From IMG/VR virus record IMGVR_UViG_3300008251_000129: a DNA stretch of 7,703 nucleotides; one strand, given 5' to 3'. The DNA comes from a virus. A program made the position numbers and the translations under genes. Positions within the stretch are counted from its first letter, which is position 1; each line of letters starts with the position of its first letter. The notes under the pieces were generated by a model that was not told where the DNA came from, made no database searches, and was given only the letters and a program-made list of their open reading frames with translations. This document shows, in pieces, positions 1-7,703 of this stretch.

Positions 1-6
1 ATACTT

Positions 7-36
7 CGTTCGTGGGCTTCGCCGATTTTACTCTCT
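7..36 (+). repeat. Direct repeat copy A, core CGTTCGTGGGCTTCGC followed by a T/A-rich CTCTC tail (duplicated at 7587..7616)
   Basis: The 16-nt core at 7..22 matches 55..70 at 15/16 positions. Both copies are followed by a short AT stretch and then CTCTC. Confidence 0.8.
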
Positions 37-54
37 GCGTATGGCACCTAGAAT

Positions 55-81
55 CGTTCGAGGGCTTCGCTATTATCTCTC
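55..81 (+). repeat. Direct repeat copy B, core CGTTCGAGGGCTTCGC (duplicated at 7635..7661)
   Basis: Starts 48 bp after copy A. A degenerate third copy (TTCGTGGG-ATGCTAT) lies at 7345..7359. Confidence 0.8.
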
Positions 82-91
82 ACGACTCAAG

Positions 92-120
92 GCTAAACAT
101 AAGTGTGCATTATGCGCAGT
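92..120 (-). other. dif-like XerC/XerD recombination site (candidate attP)
   Basis: The minus-strand reading is ACTGCGCATAA TGCACAC TTATGTTTAGC, against E. coli dif GGTGCGCATAA TGTATA TTATGTTAAAT. The XerC arm matches 9/11 and the XerD arm 8/11, with a 7-nt spacer. It lies 7 nt downstream of the last phage gene. Confidence 0.7.
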
Positions 121-126
121 TAGCTT

Positions 127-512: not shown

Positions 513-1961
513 TTACTCTGCATCAGTTAAATTAAAAGCAGATAAAAAATCAGTTTGTTCTGATACTTCATCATGTGAATTATTAAAATCATCAGGTTCA
601 TTGTCTTCAATAAATTCACGTTTAGCACGCTGGTTAAAGACACAAAAAATCGTTGTATCTGTTAGATTATTCTTTAAGGCCACAAGTCCATCATCAACAA
701 ACCTAACAAACCAACCAATTGATTTCAAATCATCACTATTTAATTGAATTGTTGTTTCTCGACCGTCTTCTGGTGGGAACGTCAATTCAAAAATGTATAA
801 GGATGGGTGAGCGTAACCAGTTAAATATATTGATTTAGCATTAAACGGCAACATTAAATCACTAACGAACTCATTCCCAGTAGAAGCATTCGCAAGCAAA
901 GCAAAACGCATACGAACACCATCACTTTTATCATCAATGCCTTTGTTATTCGGAATGCTATCGATAGAATTTTTCTTAGGAGTTTTAAGATCCAAAGAAT
1001 TAGACTTTTTAATGGTTTTAATATCCTCAGTAACGGGCTGAACGGCTTCAATAACCGCTTCATTCTGTTTTTCAAGCGGGTTACTTTCCCGAGTAAGTAC
1101 ATCATAAAGCGTGACGAAAAAGAAAGATAATGAGACAAGTACCACCCCCAAAACTGCTAATAAAGCAGGAGATTTTAATGGATTAGAACCCTCACCAGAT
1201 TTAGTGAAAGTATTAGTTTGTGTAGATTTATAACAAAGATGAACCTCAACAGGCACATAGATTGACGTGCAATCCTGTTTCTTGGTTGTAATACCATTAG
1301 ACTTAGGATTATGTTCAAAAATACGTGGTCTTCTTTTAGTTACAAAGAATGAATCTCTTGAACGATGTGAATAAGCAACCTCTGCACACGCCCTAACATT
1401 TGATGATATTTGTGTAATGTCAGGTGTACCAAAAACAATATCCCAATTGTATTTTCGGTGGCGTTCGAAGGAGTCTTCTAAGGTATCAGGTCTAATAATT
1501 GTACCGTCTTCATTAAAACGTAAATCACCAGTATCGTCAGTATCACCCTCGTCAAACTCTTCAGCTTTAATTAATGCCTTTTGTTGTTCAAAAAGCTCTT
1601 TTACAATAACGGGCAATTCATCTTCAAAATCTTCAAAGGGTCTAAGTAACAAACCACCTTTAAACTTGTTGTTATAAATAGATTGAACTTCATCAATGAC
1701 AATCAATGCACCCAAAGGAACCCAAGAGAACCAGTTTTGCCACAAATCTTTTTTAGATTTCTTCAATGACCCCAAACGAACCAAACGAGCAGTATCAGGG
1801 AACTTAATACCTAATGATTTTTCAATGTGAGAAAGAGGATAAATACCCTCCATATTGGTGAAAACAATACGCCCTGCTTTCAACCCCTCAATAATATGAA
1901 ACCAAACAATGATAGCGGATTTATAAGAACCATTAGGGCCATGACGAAACAAGATAGCCAT
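513..1961 (-). CDS. zot: Phage assembly ATPase, gI / Zot family (P-loop NTPase with C-terminal membrane anchor and periplasmic domain)
   Basis: N-terminal Walker A GPNGSYKS (compare Zot GAPGSYKT). Walker B LIVIDEVQ. The block HRKYNWDIVFGTPDITQISSNVRACAEVAYSHR resembles M13 gpI ARKLGWDIIFLVQDLSIVDKQARSALAEHVVYCR. Transmembrane segment ALLAVLGVVLVSLSFFFVTLY near residue 266. The start codon overlaps the gVI stop as TAATG. Confidence 0.9.
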   Translation of the reverse strand: MAILFRHGPNGSYKSAIIVWFHIIEGLKAGRIVFTNMEGIYPLSHIEKSLGIKFPDTARLVRLGSLKKSKKDLWQNWFSWVPLGALIVIDEVQSIYNNKFKGGLLLRPFEDFEDELPVIVKELFEQQKALIKAEEFDEGDTDDTGDLRFNEDGTIIRPDTLEDSFERHRKYNWDIVFGTPDITQISSNVRACAEVAYSHRSRDSFFVTKRRPRIFEHNPKSNGITTKKQDCTSIYVPVEVHLCYKSTQTNTFTKSGEGSNPLKSPALLAVLGVVLVSLSFFFVTLYDVLTRESNPLEKQNEAVIEAVQPVTEDIKTIKKSNSLDLKTPKKNSIDSIPNNKGIDDKSDGVRMRFALLANASTGNEFVSDLMLPFNAKSIYLTGYAHPSLYIFELTFPPEDGRETTIQLNSDDLKSIGWFVRFVDDGLVALKNNLTDTTIFCVFNQRAKREFIEDNEPDDFNNSHDEVSEQTDFLSAFNLTDAE

Positions 1962-2362
1962 TATTTAACCCCCATGAAATTCAAAACAAAACGAGTCGTA
2001 CCACATTCAATTAAGAATTGAACCATGTTGGGAATATCGTACAAATTCATATAATGACCGATTTTAGGCGGGATATTAGAAAAAACATCATTCACAATAC
2101 TAGTGACATTCAAATCAACAAGTAACGCCTTAGCCGTACCCATTGCAATTTGCATCATCCATATTTGAAACTCTATTTTACCTAACGTGAAATACAAAAT
2201 GATATTTGCAAACATGCGCTCAAAAAAAGATGGAATACCATAAAAAGCATCACGAATATCAGTTATATTTTGACCAATAGACTCAAAAAAGCCCACTTCA
2301 TCGGCAGCGAACACGCCCGAGCTAACCAGTAATAACGGGATGATATAGATTAATTTATTCAA
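1961..2362 (-). CDS. gVI-like minor coat / virion-cap membrane protein (assigned by position and hydrophobicity)
   Basis: Lies between gIII and gI as in all inoviruses. Has hydrophobic segments. TTG start preceded by AGGAG at 7 nt, overlapping the gIII stop as TTGA. Confidence 0.7.
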   Translation of the reverse strand: MNKLIYIIPLLLVSSGVFAADEVGFFESIGQNITDIRDAFYGIPSFFERMFANIILYFTLGKIEFQIWMMQIAMGTAKALLVDLNVTSIVNDVFSNIPPKIGHYMNLYDIPNMVQFLIECGTTRFVLNFMGVK

Positions 2363-4044
2363 AATTTAACTCCTAAGACAATTAAGAAACCAGTCACGCC
2401 AATCATGAACCAGAGAATATGTTGAATACCAAATTCAGTAGAAAACTTCTCAAGCCAATGAGAGCCTAAATCTAAATTAACGCCTTTTATATCAACCATG
2501 TTAGGCACATAACCACTATCAGAAACGGTCAAACTACCAGTAGAAAAAACACCTTTTACTTCATCCATTAAAGCCTGCAAGTCCCCTTTTGAACTTTCGA
2601 TTTTTCCCTCAATAGCTGTAATAGTTTCAGCACCTAATACCTCAGCAAAAGGATCGCTTCCAGTAGTAGGCAAGTTATAATTCTTTACCTCTGTTTCTCC
2701 ACCTAAACTTTCTAAACCTGCTTTAATATCATCAAGCTTTCCATCTCTTTTAGCGTCACGTTCAGCTTGTCTATCAGCTAGTGATTGTTCTCTTGCTGTT
2801 AAATCATCAACAGAGTTTTTTACTTTTCCTAAACCAGTAGAAACTGCCCCACCTAATTCATCTAAGTTTTTTGATAAGTCTGTTGAGGCTTTCCTTATAT
2901 CTCCCTGTATGCCAGAAAGTAATTTTTCACTTGTTGTATTACTTGCATCAACAGGGGTTAAAGTATCAGGATTAAAATCTTCATTTGGTGTAATTGGAGA
3001 GGCAAAAATTGAATCTGAAATACAATAGAATTCATCGTCAACATATCCACAACCATCGGGATAAGTCCCATCAGGGTTAATATGCTTGGTTTCATCCTGT
3101 GGACAATATGAAGTGCCGTTTATTTTTCTACAAGAGCCCTCAACGCTTGGATCAAATTGAGAATCTTCTGGTAAATCAAAATCAGGCTTTTGATAATCAC
3201 TAGGGTCATCACCAAAACAAACAAAATTCTGTTTACCGCTTACAGAATCAGTAACACTTCCACAACCAGGCTGACAAACACCACTAGAACTACAAACATC
3301 ATTAGAATCAACAAGGCAAACAGTGGTTGAAAATCCATTGCTTAGATATGGCTTACAAATTGGTTCGGGAGGTGGCTCTGGCAAATCGGGAAGCTCAGGT
3401 AAATTATTAGTAGCACAATCAGGCCAAGAAGGTTTTTGTTTCATATTTAAACCTGTCTCACCACATTTATCATATGGAATTGTAGGGGTAATACGGGCGC
3501 AAACACTAGAAGATTCAAATTCAGGATCACCTAAATAACCATCATTACAGATCTTAATCCTACAAACATTTTCACTTAAATTATTTAAATCTGGTATTAA
3601 ATCAGGATAGTTATCATCATCACAGAAGGGACCTGTTTCATATGTGCCTGTATATTTAAGCTGTTCACCGCCTGTCTGGTAATAACAACTTTTGGCACTA
3701 TAACAAAGTGTCCAGTTTGCACTCAAATATGCATAAGTTGAAGCGTCACTGCGAGTTTTAACTCCATCAATTAATGAAAACGGAGGGGATAAGTCTTCTG
3801 TTCTCCATGAAAAGCCTTTTATTCTCGCATCTTCTAAAATTTTTAATTTCCATTGTTCTTTGACACTTGAAGCACATTCAAACATTGTATGACCGCGCCC
3901 CGTAATGGCTTTTGAATCGATTGAGCAAGTAACACCTATTTCTATCATTGGTTGTTTACAATTATTTAAGTTTTCAGCACAAACATTTGCATATATATCT
4001 AAACTAAAAAAAAGAGCTGTAAAAACAGCCAAGTATCTAACCAT
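2359..4044 (-). CDS. gIII-like adsorption / minor coat protein (561 aa from ATG 4044)
   Basis: ATG at 4044 is preceded by GGAG at 8 nt and opens a signal peptide MVRYLAVFTALFFSLDIYA. There are 22 Cys in the N-terminal two thirds and a proline linker LPELPDLPEPPPEP. The C-terminal membrane anchor is ILWFMIGVTGFLIVLGV. Its position after gVIII is canonical. The ORF-track start at 4128 is a TTG with no ribosome-binding site. Confidence 0.85.
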   Translation of the reverse strand: MVRYLAVFTALFFSLDIYANVCAENLNNCKQPMIEIGVTCSIDSKAITGRGHTMFECASSVKEQWKLKILEDARIKGFSWRTEDLSPPFSLIDGVKTRSDASTYAYLSANWTLCYSAKSCYYQTGGEQLKYTGTYETGPFCDDDNYPDLIPDLNNLSENVCRIKICNDGYLGDPEFESSSVCARITPTIPYDKCGETGLNMKQKPSWPDCATNNLPELPDLPEPPPEPICKPYLSNGFSTTVCLVDSNDVCSSSGVCQPGCGSVTDSVSGKQNFVCFGDDPSDYQKPDFDLPEDSQFDPSVEGSCRKINGTSYCPQDETKHINPDGTYPDGCGYVDDEFYCISDSIFASPITPNEDFNPDTLTPVDASNTTSEKLLSGIQGDIRKASTDLSKNLDELGGAVSTGLGKVKNSVDDLTAREQSLADRQAERDAKRDGKLDDIKAGLESLGGETEVKNYNLPTTGSDPFAEVLGAETITAIEGKIESSKGDLQALMDEVKGVFSTGSLTVSDSGYVPNMVDIKGVNLDLGSHWLEKFSTEFGIQHILWFMIGVTGFLIVLGVKF

Positions 4045-4090
4045 TTTTACAACTCCAAAAAACGAAAAAAGTACAAAAAGTTTAATTTTA

Positions 4091-4171
4091 TTAAGCGGAA
4101 ACAACGCCAGAGTAAACACCAAGGGCAAAAACTAAACCAATGGTGCAACCTAAAATTATCCCAAGAAACAC
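4091..4171 (-). CDS. Candidate 26-codon hydrophobic peptide (V/M)FLGIILGCTIGLVFALGVYSGVVSA, possible gVII/gIX-type minor virion protein
   Basis: Not in the ORF track because it is too short. GTG directly follows the gVIII TAA stop (TAAGTG). The peptide is entirely one transmembrane-like segment. It fills the otherwise empty gVIII-gIII gap. Confidence 0.35.
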   Translation of the reverse strand: MFLGIILGCTIGLVFALGVYSGVVSA

Positions 4172-4390
4172 TTACTTTTTAAGCCAGTAAAGAATCATAC
4201 CTACACCGAACATAATGCCCGCAAGACTGATTAAAGCCGTTGCAAGTAATGTTTGGTTTGTATTAGCAGCTGCAGATAAAGCCGCAATATCAGCAGCTAA
4301 ATCAGCTTTTGCTACAGCAGACATACCTAGAAAACTAGAAGCAACTGCAACTTTAGCGCCGTACTTTTTAGCCATTTTACGTAATTTCAT
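4172..4390 (-). CDS. gVIII: Major coat protein, gVIII type (72-aa precursor, predicted 43-aa mature)
   Basis: Signal peptide ending AKA|D. Mature peptide has an acidic N-terminus (DLAADIAAL), a hydrophobic core (LISLAGIMFGVGMILYW) and a basic C-terminus (LKK). AAGGA Shine-Dalgarno at 5 nt. Confidence 0.9.
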   Translation of the reverse strand: MKLRKMAKKYGAKVAVASSFLGMSAVAKADLAADIAALSAAANTNQTLLATALISLAGIMFGVGMILYWLKK

Positions 4391-4412
4391 AAAAATCCTT
4401 ATTTAATAAAAG

Positions 4413-4625
4413 TTATTTCCTCCCAAGCCATTTGAGGAATCGCCCCAAAACATGACCAGAGAAAAAGGTAGTTAGTAAGACACCATCTACTTGCAAAGCA
4501 ACAGCGGTATCTAACTCAGTTAATGGATTACTTACGGGTTGTTCGTAAGCTATCCAATTCGTTGTACCCGAACATGTTCCACTTGGTAATATTGGTTCAC
4601 TACAAACCAGAACATATTCAGTCAT
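4413..4625 (-). CDS. 70-aa small protein with hydrophobic C-terminal segment and basic tail, possible minor virion protein (gVII/gIX positional analogue)
   Basis: Lies between gV and gVIII, where Ff phages encode gVII and gIX. The C-terminus VLLTTFFSGHVLGRFLKWLGRK is coat-like. The start is 3 nt after the gV stop. Confidence 0.65.
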   Translation of the reverse strand: MTEYVLVCSEPILPSGTCSGTTNWIAYEQPVSNPLTELDTAVALQVDGVLLTTFFSGHVLGRFLKWLGRK

Positions 4626-4628
4626 TTG

Positions 4629-4964
4629 TTAAGCACTCTTTTTATGCTGATTTGTTTCATCACGTACAAAGCCAACACAGATAGATTTTTGAATATCTTT
4701 AGGGTCTGGCTGTAAAACTAGAGTTACTTTTTCACCAAAACGCATCATTGCCATTTCAGGCCAGATAGCAGGGTCAGGAGTAAAACCAATAGTCGCAACA
4801 TCAAAGCCAGCTTCCTTACGTTCCATATATCCATTTTTAAAATGAGGAGTACATGGTTTTAAGTAAGTAATATTTGCAAATTCATAAGGTGAACCTTTAC
4901 CCTTATCAGAAGTGCCTTTCATGTGAGTAATACCAATAACGATTACAGTAATTTCTTGTGACAT
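4629..4964 (-). CDS. gV: ssDNA-binding protein, gV-like
   Basis: Canonical position. The motif KGTSDKGKGSPYEF resembles the DNA-binding loop of M13 gpV (RSGVSRQGKPYSL). AAGGA Shine-Dalgarno at 7 nt. Confidence 0.75.
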   Translation of the reverse strand: MSQEITVIVIGITHMKGTSDKGKGSPYEFANITYLKPCTPHFKNGYMERKEAGFDVATIGFTPDPAIWPEMAMMRFGEKVTLVLQPDPKDIQKSICVGFVRDETNQHKKSA

Positions 4965-4975
4965 TTTCTTATCCT

Positions 4976-5281
4976 TTAGTTTGAGTGAATAACAGGCTGA
5001 CCATTATTTTTCATGAATTTAAAATGGCTCAACCTTGTTTCTTGATTAAAAATTCCTTTGAAGCGTAAGCCCCCTGCTCTTGGTGAGCGATTAGCAACTG
5101 AATCAAAATCTTGTTTTGTTGCGGTAACTATTTCGTGACAACATTCACAACGGGCAACACCTAACTTAAGGTAAAAGTCTTGGCGTTCGTGGCAGTTACC
5201 ACAGTGAATATCTTCAATATGGTAAAGTTCATCAGCATATTGGTAATCAGTCATATCTATTGAAAGTTGAGATTCATGCAT
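4976..5281 (-). CDS. 101-aa zinc-ribbon protein of unknown function (CxxC...CxCC)
   Basis: Contains CGNCH (residues 27-31) and CECCH (residues 45-49). The start codon overlaps the gII stop (TAATG), implying translational coupling. Ff phages have no counterpart between gII and gV. Confidence 0.75.
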   Translation of the reverse strand: MHESQLSIDMTDYQYADELYHIEDIHCGNCHERQDFYLKLGVARCECCHEIVTATKQDFDSVANRSPRAGGLRFKGIFNQETRLSHFKFMKNNGQPVIHSN

Positions 5282-5661
5282 TAGAAATTAACCACTTTAA
5301 GAGGACGAATATCAAAATCTACATGTTCGAGATTTGAAACGGGTTCAACGTACCAGTTAGGGCGTTGAGCAGAAAAATCAATTTCGATAGCTTTACAAAA
5401 TGGGATAATGTTCGTTTGAGAATCGGCAGATAAATTTTGAAGTTGAGCTTTGCTCATACCAGTTCCCTCAATCAAAGAATCAAGCATGCGTTTAAATGTT
5501 TGGCGAGAAGTCATAGAGCGATAAACTTTATCGTAACCCTCGTTAAGCAAGCGCATGTAATACGCATAAACACGATCTGCTTTTGCGTAAGAAAAACCTT
5601 TTTTAGTTTTAGTGAAAAAAACTTTTTTTAATTTGTCGTGAACCTTATCTTCATTTTGCAT
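5281..5661 (-). CDS. gX: Candidate gX-like protein: in-frame internal start within gII (C-terminal 126 aa)
   Basis: Met314 (GEGVNMQNED) aligns with the M13 gX start (EGDSMNIYDD). It is preceded by GGTGAGGGTGTAAAT, i.e. GAGG at 8 nt, comparable to GAGGGGGATTCA before M13 gX. Confidence 0.55.
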   Translation of the reverse strand: MQNEDKVHDKLKKVFFTKTKKGFSYAKADRVYAYYMRLLNEGYDKVYRSMTSRQTFKRMLDSLIEGTGMSKAQLQNLSADSQTNIIPFCKAIEIDFSAQRPNWYVEPVSNLEHVDFDIRPLKVVNF

Positions 5662-6600
5662 ATTTACACCCTCACCTTTCAGCGCCTCTAACAATGGTTG
5701 GAACGAGGCATTCCAAAGGGCTTCAATTAAGCAAACCCCATCTTTTAACATTTTCTTTTGTAGGCGAACCCAATCACTTAATAAAGTTGGGTACCCCATT
5801 CTTTTAAACCAATCTTTTTTTAATCGCGCCTCAAAGCGCACGAGCCCATCAGACCAAAGCAATAATTTTTCATCTTTTAAAACTGCTAAACGTTTTTGTA
5901 AGTCAGCATTAGAAGGATTTTTACCTAATTGAAAATCAAGCTTTGAAATCTCGTTTTGTACTTCTGAATATTTTAAATACACTTTTAAAACACGTTTTTT
6001 AGAAGTCATAGAAGTTAAATAAGTCGTGGTTTCAAAATCAGATGAATGGACAGAACGACGCATTTGACCGTTAGCCACATTGCGTAAAAATTTGATAAAT
6101 GAAAGTTGGTGAGAGCTTTCTTTAAGTCTTGCTGAATAAGTTGCATCAATAATATCAACCGTTGTTCTAGGCCAATCAATTGCATCAACTAAATCAGGGT
6201 AAGCCTCTTGGAGACTGCGAAGCATGTGAAAAGATCCATTTTCAATACTTGTAGAACCAAAAACATTATGACCTTGCATGATTTTCGCAGGACTTGCTTT
6301 AATTTCTAAACGAGGGTCGCCCATTGAATTTGAATCCCAAATTTTCATAGCGATACCAGAGAACGAACTAGGCAAAGATTCCCAAGGAGTATTAAGTTCG
6401 ATGTGGTCAACCTTGTAACCTTTCCCACCTTTCAAACCATCCCAACATTCAACATAACTAATTCTTCGAGCGGAAAGATTGAAGCCAAAAACAGAAAGCA
6501 TCTCAAATTTTAAATGGCGCTCACCAGACTCACATACCGTTAAGTATTCATCTTTAAAAAACACTGATAATTTTAAATAATCAATCATTTTCGAGTCCAT
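5281..6600 (-). CDS. gII: Rolling-circle replication initiator (nickase), homologue of Ff gene II protein
   Basis: Multiple blocks match my recall of M13 gpII. These are NLSARRISY/NLSARTVEY, WESLPSSFSGIAMKIW/FESLPTHYSGIAFKIY and EIKASPAKIMQGHNVFG/EIKASPAKVLQGHNVFG. Further blocks are IDATYSAR/IDATFSAR, LRNVANGQ/LRNVSNGQ, GLVRFEARLK/GLVRFEARIK, LLNEGYDKV/LVNEGYDSV and DFSAQRPNWYVEPV/DFSSQRPDWYNEPV. An alternative start is ATG 6588 (MIDYL, aligning with M13 MIDML). Confidence 0.93.
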   Translation of the reverse strand: MDSKMIDYLKLSVFFKDEYLTVCESGERHLKFEMLSVFGFNLSARRISYVECWDGLKGGKGYKVDHIELNTPWESLPSSFSGIAMKIWDSNSMGDPRLEIKASPAKIMQGHNVFGSTSIENGSFHMLRSLQEAYPDLVDAIDWPRTTVDIIDATYSARLKESSHQLSFIKFLRNVANGQMRRSVHSSDFETTTYLTSMTSKKRVLKVYLKYSEVQNEISKLDFQLGKNPSNADLQKRLAVLKDEKLLLWSDGLVRFEARLKKDWFKRMGYPTLLSDWVRLQKKMLKDGVCLIEALWNASFQPLLEALKGEGVNMQNEDKVHDKLKKVFFTKTKKGFSYAKADRVYAYYMRLLNEGYDKVYRSMTSRQTFKRMLDSLIEGTGMSKAQLQNLSADSQTNIIPFCKAIEIDFSAQRPNWYVEPVSNLEHVDFDIRPLKVVNF

Positions 6601-6649
6601 TCTAAGTTTCTAAGAAATTAGTTTATGAGGGCATCTTAGATTCTTAGAA
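6601..6649. promoter_or_regulatory. Operator-like array: two TCTAAG(A) hexamers (6601..6615) inverted against two TCTTAGA heptamers (6635..6649), containing a perfect 12-bp inverted repeat AGTTTCTAAGAA (6605..6616) / TTCTTAGAAACT (6641..6652)
   Basis: Read by eye. It lies between the divergent gII and regulator genes and overlaps the predicted gII promoter -10 and spacer. Confidence 0.65.
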
Positions 6650-6661
6650 ACTAATAGTCAA
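6633..6661 (-). promoter_or_regulatory. Predicted sigma70-type promoter for gII: -35 TTGACT (6661..6656), 17-nt spacer, -10 TAAGAT (6638..6633)
   Basis: 5/6 and 4/6 matches to consensus with optimal spacing. It is about 30 nt upstream of the gII ATG. Confidence 0.55.
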
Positions 6662-6680
6662 AGAAAATAATTTATTTGTT

Positions 6681-6686
6681 TATAAT
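6681..6686 (+). promoter_or_regulatory. Perfect -10 hexamer TATAAT upstream of the plus-strand regulator gene (weak -35)
   Basis: TATAAT sits 32 nt before ATG 6718. There is no good -35; the nearest candidate, TAGTCA, is 20 nt away. It is back-to-back with the gII promoter. Confidence 0.4.
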
Positions 6687-6717
6687 AAAATTACGTAACT
6701 TGATAAAGAGCAATAAA

Positions 6718-6903
6718 ATGCCAACTAAACACATCGACGAAAAAACATGGAAATACGTTAGTGATGCAACAATAAAAGCCATAATCCAAACGAAAGAACA
6801 CTTCAAAGAAAGTGATATTTTAAGGATGCTAATCACTAAAGGATTCGAATCTATAACCGAGGATGACTATGAAAAAGAGGCAAGAAAAAAGAGGAAAAAA
6901 TAG
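6718..6903 (+). CDS. Small (61 aa) putative ribbon-helix-helix-type transcriptional regulator, divergent from gII
   Basis: It is the only plus-strand ORF not embedded in a larger gene. ATG 6718 has AAGAG upstream, and the TTG 6676 extension is unlikely. The pattern is a short N-terminal strand (KHID), a helix (EKTWKYVSDATIKAII), a loop and a second helix (SDILRMLITKGFESI), then a basic tail KKRKK. The fold assignment is inference only. Confidence 0.6.
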   Translation: MPTKHIDEKTWKYVSDATIKAIIQTKEHFKESDILRMLITKGFESITEDDYEKEARKKRKK

Positions 6904-6937: not shown

Positions 6938-6963
6938 GGGAGCACTATTAAAGAGGTGCTCCC
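6938..6963 (-). other. (+)-strand origin of replication: nick-site hairpin, Ff type
   Basis: The phage-sense sequence is GGGAGCAC-CTCTTTAATA-GTGCTCCC, against f1 GAGTCCAC-GTTCTTTAATA-GTGGACTC. Both have an 8-bp stem and the loop core TCTTTAATAGTG is identical. By analogy, the nick falls in CTTT^AATA, between window positions 6950 and 6949 on the minus strand. Confidence 0.85.
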
Positions 6964-6979
6964 ATGCGTTTTCACCTAA

Positions 6980-7001
6980 CAACTGTATTTAAATACAGTT
7001 G
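6980..7001. other. Perfect 22-bp palindrome CAACTGTATTTAAATACAGTTG
   Basis: Eleven-bp arms with no mismatch. It lies upstream (phage sense) of the nick hairpin, where Ff phages carry the (-)-origin and packaging hairpins. It could also terminate the plus-strand regulator transcript. Confidence 0.6.
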
Positions 7002-7025
7002 AATGCTGTTTTCCGAAAAAATCGG

Positions 7026-7045
7026 GAAATCAGGGAACTGATTTC
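7026..7045. other. Hairpin GAAATCAG-GGAA-CTGATTTC (8-bp stem, 4-nt loop)
   Basis: Read by eye. It is part of the hairpin cluster in the large intergenic region. Confidence 0.5.
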
Positions 7046-7054
7046 GGGCATAGA

Positions 7055-7200
7055 ATGCCAAAAACAGGAGAAAAAGCGGGAGGCCGTGAGAACGGCAAAA
7101 ACAAGAAAAGGCATGGCGAGGAACGCCACAAAAGACCGGAAAAACAAAGAAAGGTCAAAACACTAAAGGAAATGATGCAAGCATCACAAAGCTTATAACT
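7055..7200 (+). other. T-depleted, purine-rich, GC-elevated block; coding status unresolved
   Basis: The 80 nt at 7061..7140 contain only 2 T and are about 79% purine, with GC near 50%, unlike the AT-rich rest of the genome. The block carries a 47-codon basic ORF on the plus strand (7055..7198, MPKTGEKAGGRENGKNKKRHGEERHKRPEKQRKVKTLKEMMQASQSL). The 63-aa ORF 7030..7221 lies on the minus strand. Neither has a convincing ribosome-binding site. Confidence 0.5.
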
Positions 7201-7535
7201 TCGCAAGCTCAGCAAAGGCATCCTCCGGACTAAGGGCGTTAATTCAAAAGAGGGGCGGAATTGAAATCAAGGCGTTGAGACTGCAAAACCTCTTCTAGCT
7301 GTCTATTTTTCTTCTCTTTTGGTTTGTTAATAACGATTAATTTCTTCGTGGGATGCTATCCAAGCAGTCATTAAGTAGCGTTCTTTGGGTGGGTTGGTAC
7401 TCTGCGAGGCAAATTCGAAAGAGATCCTTTTTAGATCACTTCCGCGAGCCACGTTTATTGTACAAATTTACCGCGGTTTGTGGTGAACGGGTATATTAAT
7501 TATGATACTCGGGTATCGCTAAATGGTCCTATTAT

Positions 7536-7551
7536 GACAAACAAGTTTGTC
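7536..7551. other. Palindrome GACAAAC-AA-GTTTGTC
   Basis: Seven-bp perfect arms, about 20 nt from the XerD-arm-like 11-mer. Function unknown. Confidence 0.4.
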
Positions 7552-7571
7552 AAATATCGCCAAATGTCTAC

Positions 7572-7582
7572 CTATGTTAAAT
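7572..7582 (+). other. Isolated XerD-arm-like 11-mer CTATGTTAAAT, inverted relative to the dif-like site 89 nt away
   Basis: 10/11 match to the consensus XerD arm TTATGTTAAAT. The adjacent would-be XerC arm (7555..7565) is degenerate. Confidence 0.5.
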
Positions 7583-7703
7583 ACTTCGTTCGTGGGCTTC
7601 GCCGATTTTACTCTCTGCGTATGGCACCTAGAATCGTTCGAGGGCTTCGCTATTATCTCTCACGACTCAAGGCTAAACATAAGTGTGCATTATGCGCAGT
7701 TAG
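7581..7703. repeat. Terminal redundancy copy 2 (identical to 1..123)
   Basis: Same 123 nt as the window start. Confidence 0.95.
7672..7700 (-). other. Same dif-like site as 92..120 (copy within the terminal redundancy)
   Basis: Identical sequence by virtue of the 123-bp overlap. Confidence 0.7.

Follow-up and report, generated by a model that had tools for sequence, protein, structure and literature searches.

Positions 7554..7700 of the window, by which we mean the whole 7,703-nt stretch of viral DNA analysed here, very likely form an Xer-dependent attP of some kind, belonging to a phage that has no integrase and exploits the Xer recombinases of its host. The segment contained two dif-like sites in inverted orientation, and both were conserved in a diverged relative (L001) whose (+) strand folded strongly across them. 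Relatives were found inserted at the dif site of Psychromonas, with hybrid junctions at the first of the two sites. The original prediction had described the region as the attP of an integrase-less phage that takes over XerCD, in either a CTXφ-like folded form or a VGJφ-like double-stranded form, and it is supported by the relatives at dif and by the fold. For the window phage itself, a CTX-type mechanism using folded single-stranded DNA is the probable form.

The window consisted of a circular genome of 7,580 nt plus a terminal redundancy of 123 nt, with positions 1..123 identical to 7581..7703, and its GC content was 36%. The phage is an inovirus, and its recognisable genes lay without exception on the minus strand. 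They encoded a rolling-circle initiator of the Ff pII type (Rep, 5281..6600; PF05144 and PF05155; ~40% identity to IKe/M13 pII), an RstB-like single-stranded-DNA-binding protein (4629..4964; PF07459 CTX_RstB, E 6.7e-13; PHROG 929), the major coat protein (4172..4390), a 589-aa protein in the pIII position (2359..4128) with no match in Pfam or PHROGs, an Ace/pVI-like protein (1961..2362), and the Zot/pI assembly ATPase (513..1961; PF05707 Zot, E 4e-38). Zot/pI was the final large gene of the morphogenesis module, which stopped directly upstream of attP, as in the layout of CTXφ. When the nine largest minus-strand ORFs (70-589 aa) and five smaller ORFs, covering both strands, were scanned against Pfam and PHROGs, no recombinase, integrase or transposase domain was detected, which bears out the earlier statement that the phage has no integrase gene. 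The packaged (+) strand of Inoviridae has the same sense as the genes, and the phage (+) strand therefore corresponds to the minus strand of the window. The strand of the rep gene would be the coding strand and hence the packaged (+) strand.

The replication module was a mosaic, in which the Ff/IKe pII-type initiator was combined with a protein of the CTXφ RstB family, whereas the initiator of CTXφ is of the RstA type. Between attP and rep, five terminator-like hairpins were found on both strands at 6938..7130 (0.9 expected), and A/G-rich direct repeats lay at 7052..7154, where a convincing ORF was absent. The 6938..7130 region may have a regulatory or origin role. The small divergent ORFs upstream of Rep were unrelated between the window phage and L001. 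A megablast search of the whole window genome against GenBank phages returned 0 matches, and Zot and pIII searches of IMG/VR gave no close relatives of the window phage.

Site 1 (7672..7700, minus strand) read ACTGCGCATAA-TGCACAC-TTATGTTTAGC and was composed of an XerC arm (7700..7690), a 7-nt central region (7689..7683) and an XerD arm (7682..7672); its top strand coincided with the strand that encodes all phage genes. Its arms matched those of E. coli dif at 9/11 and 8/11 positions, with a 7-nt spacer, and those of Psychromonas dif at 18/22 positions (10/11 for the XerC arm alone, counted by eye); the inner 7 nt of the XerD arm were perfect. The position, sequence, arm matches and spacer length agreed in full with the original prediction. 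The site appears twice in the window, at 7672..7700 and again at 92..120, because of the terminal redundancy, and the identity of the two copies was likewise as predicted.

Site 2 (7554..7582, plus strand) read ATATCGCCAAA-TGTCTAC-CTATGTTAAAT, inverted with respect to site 1. It comprised a decayed XerC-like arm (7554..7564), a 7-nt central region (7565..7571) and an XerD arm (7572..7582) that matched at 10/11 positions. Overall, 17 of the 22 arm positions matched Psychromonas dif, and the XerC arm matched E. coli dif at 5/11 and, read by eye, Psychromonas dif at 7/11. In both sites the seven inner positions of the XerD arm were perfect or near perfect. The bottom strand of site 2 lay on the phage (+) strand, where it was the complementary partner of site 1. 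An inverted XerD-like arm at 7572..7582, 89 nt from site 1, had been noticed before; its position, orientation and distance were correct, but it was not an arm standing alone, being the end of a complete second dif-like site. The three short pairings proposed earlier between the two sites were each perfectly complementary.

The statistical weight of the sites was assessed in shuffled genomes. Sites with at least 17/22 matches occurred ~0.115 times per shuffled genome, and 18/22 was reached in 0/200 shuffles, so that composite dif-like sites were significantly beyond chance in the window genome. Given how AT-rich the genome is, a lone XerD-like arm of 10/11 was not significant; one more occurred at 6457..6447.

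The 89-nt spacer between the two sites (7583..7671, minus strand) contained a 17-nt direct repeat, TCGTTCG(T/A)GGGCTTCGC, at 7586..7602 and 7634..7650, 48 nt apart. This repeat may represent paired protein-binding sites, or else a duplication by which the second prong of the fold described below was destroyed. On the other side, site 2 was abutted by a palindrome, TGACAAAC-AA-GTTTGTCA (7535..7552), which forms a hairpin on the (+) strand beside the attP fold. At the aligned position in L001 (about 6627..6650) the sequence was TTGACAG-CTTGA-CTGTCAA, with the stem changed and the symmetry kept. The palindrome is possibly a shared protein-binding or priming element. In unrelated IMG/VR attPs (L017-L025), a TTGACAGC...GCTGTCAA hairpin made up one fork prong.

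L001, an IMG/VR contig, was circular with 9,508 nt, and its Rep was 75% identical to that of the window phage. When the two phages were aligned around attP, they were diverged except for two blocks, which were exactly site 1 and site 2. Site 1 of L001 read ACTTCGCATAA-TTACCAC-TTATGTTTAGT, with the arms conserved and the central region different from that of the window. Site 2 of L001 read GAGCCGCATAA-TGTCTAC-TTATGTTAAAT, with an XerD arm matching at 11/11 positions and a central region identical to that of the window. Contigs of the nearest Rep homologues (94-83% identity) ended before attP, and no dif-like site was found in contigs of the more distant Rep homologues (~50% identity). Matches to a short site-2 pattern in four further IMG/VR contigs (L006-L009) were chance matches, unrelated to attP.

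Several other features were seen in L001. About ten tandem 10-nt repeats (CTCAATATGA and variants) were located just downstream of attP, at about 6660..6760, and also at 4840..4900 of the metagenome contig L026; these repeats are iteron-like and were absent in the window phage. L001 had its own secretin (3773..5662; pIV-like; PF00263, Secretin_N), a fragment of which persisted in the prophage remnant of Psychromonas RZ5 (L032, 16290..16619). The window phage was without a secretin and presumably uses that of its host. Inovirus prophages found through the L001 Zot in Colwellia sp. 20A7 and RE-S-Sl-9 (L030 and L031; Zot ~55% identical) had a Rep_trans initiator and, beside a Dus gene, a tyrosine integrase of their own, and were therefore rejected as Xer-type elements. 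The likeness of Zot together with the separate integrase indicates a morphogenesis module common to Xer-dependent and integrase-dependent filamentous phages of Alteromonadales.

When the GTDB species set was searched with a pattern built from the two conserved site blocks, a single genome was retrieved, Psychromonas sp. RZ5 (P. algicola), and 24 kb around its tamB gene (L032) were examined. The homology to L001 began exactly at the XerC arm, ~50 nt past the tamB stop codon, and the upstream sequence was unrelated host DNA. The order was tamB, attL, the spacer and inverted site 2, a decayed element, a perfect dif, and host genes. The attL read ACTTCGCATAA-TTACCAC-TTATGTTTAGT, which corresponds to the host XerC arm followed by the phage central region and phage XerD arm. 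The element was 3.6 kb in length, decayed and L001-like, and retained the secretin fragment and a regulatory region. Where the phage end sequence stopped, the attR read ACTTCGCATAA-TGTATA-TTATGTTAAAT, a canonical dif of 28 bp whose central region is 6 bp long, in which the phage supplied the XerC arm and dif supplied the central region and the XerD arm. An inverted XerC-arm-like sequence, ACTTCGCGTAA (L032, 13954..13981), was located 18 nt upstream of attL in the spacer between tamB and dif; its inverted repeat with the XerC arm may be a matter of chance or a tamB terminator.

The same dif 28-mer was present once each, between tamB and a DUF3297 gene, in Psychromonas sp. RZ22 (L033; TamB identity 52%) and in a metagenome scaffold (L034; TamB identity 76%). 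At this syntenic tamB locus the dif was unoccupied or nearly empty in both, and in the metagenome scaffold a ~460-bp remnant of the attP spacer still preceded the 28-mer. The GC skew flipped from positive to negative at the 28-mer and the genes converged on it, a pattern expected of a terminus.

A 16.7-kb metagenome contig (L026) contained a homologous tamB followed by three elements in tandem, with every boundary at site 1: first a 2.4-kb element with a degenerate attL, then an entire L001 prophage (4671..14241), and lastly the beginning of another element. The attL of the first element (2255..4662, ~2.4 kb) was degenerate and partly duplicated (CATCGCATAATCACCATCCCATAATCACCACTTATGT), and the element contained two small ORFs but lacked rep. 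It may have been left behind by a deletion, or it may be a satellite of the RS1 or TLC kind. All prophage junctions observed in the relatives were at site 1, and the hybrid sites of RZ5 and L026 were those predicted for a crossover at the border between the XerC arm and the central region of site 1. Of the copies at dif with hybrid sites that the original prediction had suggested looking for, those found belonged to a relative with a homologous attP module, in P. algicola RZ5 and in the L026 array, and the exact window phage was not found integrated. No integrated copy of it was detected by megablast against GenBank phages, by Rep-alignment scans of GTDB and metagenomes, or by the site-block pattern in GTDB; the Rep-alignment scan of GTDB genomes gave nothing, and that of metagenomes gave two short contigs, neither reaching attP.

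In the mechanism proposed for the window phage, it would act as an IMEX that borrows host XerC and XerD and inserts at chromosomal dif. On the (+) strand, the top strand of site 1 would pair with the bottom strand of site 2 to form an imperfect duplex closed by the forked spacer, in which binding arms for XerC and XerD flank a 7-nt central region that is partly open. XerC would cut after ACTGCGCATAA, the predicted crossover point being the border between the XerC arm and the central region of site 1, and one strand pair would be exchanged with dif. Replication would turn the exchange intermediate into a prophage, in which attL would combine the XerC arm of the host with the central region and XerD arm of the phage, and attR would be a regenerated dif. 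With a target of the Psychromonas type, ACTTCGCATAATGTATATTATGTTAAAT, the predicted attR junction of the window phage is a sequence ending in GGTCTTAGAAGCTAACTGCGCATAA joined to TGTATATTATGTTAAAT (also given as GAAGCTAACTGCGCATAA joined to TGTATATTATGTTAAAT), and the predicted attL junction is the host XerC arm joined to TGCACACTTATGTTTAGCCTTGAGTCG. The window phage presumably still integrates, with XerC as the catalyst and as folded single-stranded rather than double-stranded DNA, and its host is presumably a low-GC marine gammaproteobacterium such as Psychromonas.

In order to examine the fold, the (+) strands of the window, L001 and a CTXφ control were folded with DNA parameters, and z-scores were obtained from shuffles. 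The control was the RS1-CTX junction of NC_015209 (L015, 3175..3326), with attP1, AGTGCGTATTA-(12 nt)-TTATGTTGAGG, on the coding strand and attP2, AATGCGTATTA-TACGCCA-TTATGTTACGG, inverted ~90 nt away. The minimum free energy was -43.3 kcal/mol (z -7.4) for the control, -26.0 kcal/mol (z -5.2) for L001, and -13.7 kcal/mol for the window, with a z of about 0, no better than shuffles. CTXφ and L001 shared one topology, in which the arms of site 1 paired with those of site 2, the central region was partly open, and two inner hairpins formed a fork.

The same forked hairpin was the minimum-energy structure of the window (+) strand for 7551..7703 and for 7500..7703, that is, with the neighbouring palindrome either absent or intact. 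In the fold of 7540..7703, which cut the palindrome, z was about 0, the arms were unpaired and the forked form lay 1.9 kcal/mol above the minimum; the arm pairing was missed there because the palindrome was truncated. The inter-site pair probability in the window was ~0.4 for the bare segment and 0.7-0.8 with 60-nt flanks. When the two sites were paired in register, 17 Watson-Crick and 2 G-T pairs were formed over 29 positions in the window (6/11 in the XerC arm), compared with 20 and 2 in L001. A stem juxtaposing the half sites, as had been anticipated, was therefore the minimum-energy structure of the window and strongly stable in L001, but its stability in the window was at shuffle level.

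On a five-copy attP alignment, 90% of the L001 structure was paired. Prong A of the window (about 7672..7627) was kept relative to L001 by two compensatory double changes, UA->CG and GC->AU, which indicate continued selection. The second prong, strong in L001, was lost in the window, where the second copy of the direct repeat (the 7634..7650/7586..7602 pair) stood in its place.

Whether the DNA enters recombination single- or double-stranded is not separated by the junctions, since both routes would cut site 1 at the same place. The central region of dif, TGTATA, agreed with TGTCTAC of site 2 at 5/6 positions (TGT.TA), compared with one position (T) in site 1 of L001 and TG in site 1 of the window. 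Site 2 would therefore be the better double-stranded partner for dif, because it shares TGT and has an XerD arm of 11/11 in L001. That all junctions were nevertheless at site 1 would follow if the (+) strand alone served as substrate. The (+) strand would carry the cleavable top strand of site 1 only, and the bottom strand of site 2 would give three base pairs to the incoming dif strand. In CTXφ, homology beside the XerC arm decides integration (PMC4246890). Judged from the comparison of the two genomes, the maintenance of both sites and of a foldable spacer in two diverged phages favours a folded (+) strand. Furthermore, the tandem arrays and the decayed remnants by dif (L032, L034) are weakly indicative of an irreversible, CTX-like integration. 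Against folding in the window phage stand the marginal hairpin, the decayed XerC arm of site 2 and the resemblance of site 1 to the attP of VGJφ.

In a rival reading, site 1 alone, on the double-stranded replicative form, undergoes an XerC-first exchange with dif through its 7-bp central region as in VGJφ, site 2 being a decaying CTX-type relic or having another use; we consider this rather unlikely. The window site 1 has the format of the VGJφ attP, ACTTCGCATTA-TGTCGGC-TTATGGTAAAA, which is 29 bp long and has a 7-bp central region between arms of 11 nt (PMC4246890), and the XerC arms are nearly equal (ACTTCGCATTA and ACTGCGCATAA), with a crossover presumed on the XerC side in the window. The XerC arm of the window site 1 also matched E. 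coli dif better than that of L001 (9/11 vs 8/11), its central region shared TG rather than only T with TGTATA, and the XerC arm of site 2 and the second prong were decayed, with the fold at background level. The junction products would be the same. VGJφ, however, has one functional site, used as double-stranded DNA, whereas the window phage carried a second conserved inverted site, whose XerD arm and central region were kept in both phages. Prong A was held by compensatory changes, and the forked fold was still the minimum in the window. The homology of VGJφ to dif is 3 bp (TGT), compared with only 2 bp (TG) in the window.

VGJφ also has an activator, XafV (ORF136), adjacent to attP. When VGJφ ORF136 was used as a tblastn query, neither the window nor L001 gave a meaningful match, at a sequence level that a structural homologue could escape. 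XafV and XafT share 18% identity. The attP-adjacent ORFs (106 aa in the window, 137 aa in L001) were mutually unrelated and belonged to no Pfam family. XafV was beside attP in all V. cholerae VGJ-type IMEXs examined (bioRxiv 10.64898/2026.06.12.731946).

It is unlikely, though conceivable, that the window phage is a natural intermediate between two XerC-first IMEX classes. It would then descend from a CTX-type ancestor like L001, with site 1 improved through a better XerC arm and greater homology of its central region to dif, and with the partner site and one prong decaying, and might integrate both ways or be switching from irreversible to reversible integration. A decayed, non-functional attP, in which the lineage came from a CTX-type IMEX and the window phage is now purely episomal, is likewise unlikely. 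The weak fold (z about 0), the degenerate XerC arm of site 2 and the missing second prong agree with such a loss, as does the fact that the window genome and all close Rep relatives were encountered only as short or circular contigs; IMEX arrays, however, are seldom assembled from short-read metagenomes. Site 1 was intact (18/22, with the XerC arm at 10/11 to Psychromonas dif and no mismatch among the seven inner XerD-arm positions), site 2 kept a 10/11 XerD arm and an unchanged central region, and prong A was compensated. In addition, imperfect XerC arms in site 2 were also found in other natural variants, namely IMG/VR inoviruses, so that imperfection alone is no sign of lost function.

Inoviruses keep their origins and packaging signals in the main intergenic region, where the sites also lie, and a weak sigma-70-like match (9/12) overlapped site 2; but an operator, promoter, terminator, minus-strand origin or packaging hairpin resembling dif by chance is very improbable, since the dif match was far above chance and relatives were physically inserted at dif via site 1, and this reading is largely refuted by the prophage junctions, although the hairpins may hold a secondary role. 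The promoter-like match was rejected, as it was absent in L001 (site-2 sequence read by eye) and its frequency was that of the shuffle background. No Rfam family, tRNA or terminator-like site was found at attP.

When the window phage was compared with known Xer-exploiting elements, CTXφ was alike in layout and in the topology of the fold. CTXφ also has two inverted dif-like sites ~90 nt apart, between the morphogenesis/cargo end and the regulatory/replication genes, with the top strand of the first site on the coding (+) strand and a 7-nt central region in the inverted second site. Its hairpin is likewise forked, with the arms paired and the central region mismatched. Both phages are without an integrase and have an RstB-family protein, and the relatives of the window phage occur in tandem arrays at dif. 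The central region of site 1, however, is 7 nt in the window phage and 12 nt in CTXφ, and the dif-compatible TGT comes from the bottom strand of site 2 in the former and from site 1 in the latter. The hairpin is far weaker in the window phage, RstR and toxin genes were unrecognised in it, and the host of its relatives is Psychromonas (Alteromonadales) instead of Vibrio or Enterobacteriaceae as for the CTX type. Three IMEX classes and the CTX-type design have been described, with RS1, Ypfφ and CUS-1φ listed as further members of the CTX type, Ypfφ and CUS-1φ occurring outside Vibrio (PMC4246890), and Vibrio IMEX arrays have been catalogued (PMC12715192).

Elements of the TLCφ and Xanthomonas Cf1c type are similar to the window phage in being integrase-less and in using XerCD at dif. 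In TLC-type elements the XerD arm is degenerate, the central region is almost that of dif, exchange is XerD-first and XafT takes part (PMC4246890). In contrast, the inner XerD arm of the window phage was intact, and its central regions, TGCACAC and TGTCTAC, were not identical to that of dif.

IMG/VR was also searched for two inverted dif-like sites with 7-nt spacers, 75-105 nt apart. Ten inovirus-sized contigs of 36-40% GC were found, including that of L001, and the nine others all formed forked hairpins, with energies from -18 to -40 kcal/mol and z from -4 to -10. The best-known cases in which host Xer recombinases integrate folded single-stranded DNA are the cholera-toxin phage and a few enterobacterial relatives. 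The attP of the window phage is probably a further case of this known CTX-type strategy and introduces no new mechanism or principle. What is new is the host lineage of the relatives, Psychromonas in the Alteromonadales; the mosaic backbone, in which an Ff pII-type Rep is combined with an RstB-type protein and, in L001, additionally with its own secretin; and the mirrored role of site 2 as the dif-compatible strand, with a weak natural variant standing beside a strong one.

These results extend the CTX-type strategy to a wider host range and to further genomic backgrounds, with a relative located at the dif of cold-marine Psychromonas, and they provide a concrete dif sequence and a prophage locus, downstream of tamB, for this genus. 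The strong attP of L001 and the weak attP of the window phage form a pair well suited to asking how much hairpin stability is needed for Xer-mediated single-stranded integration.
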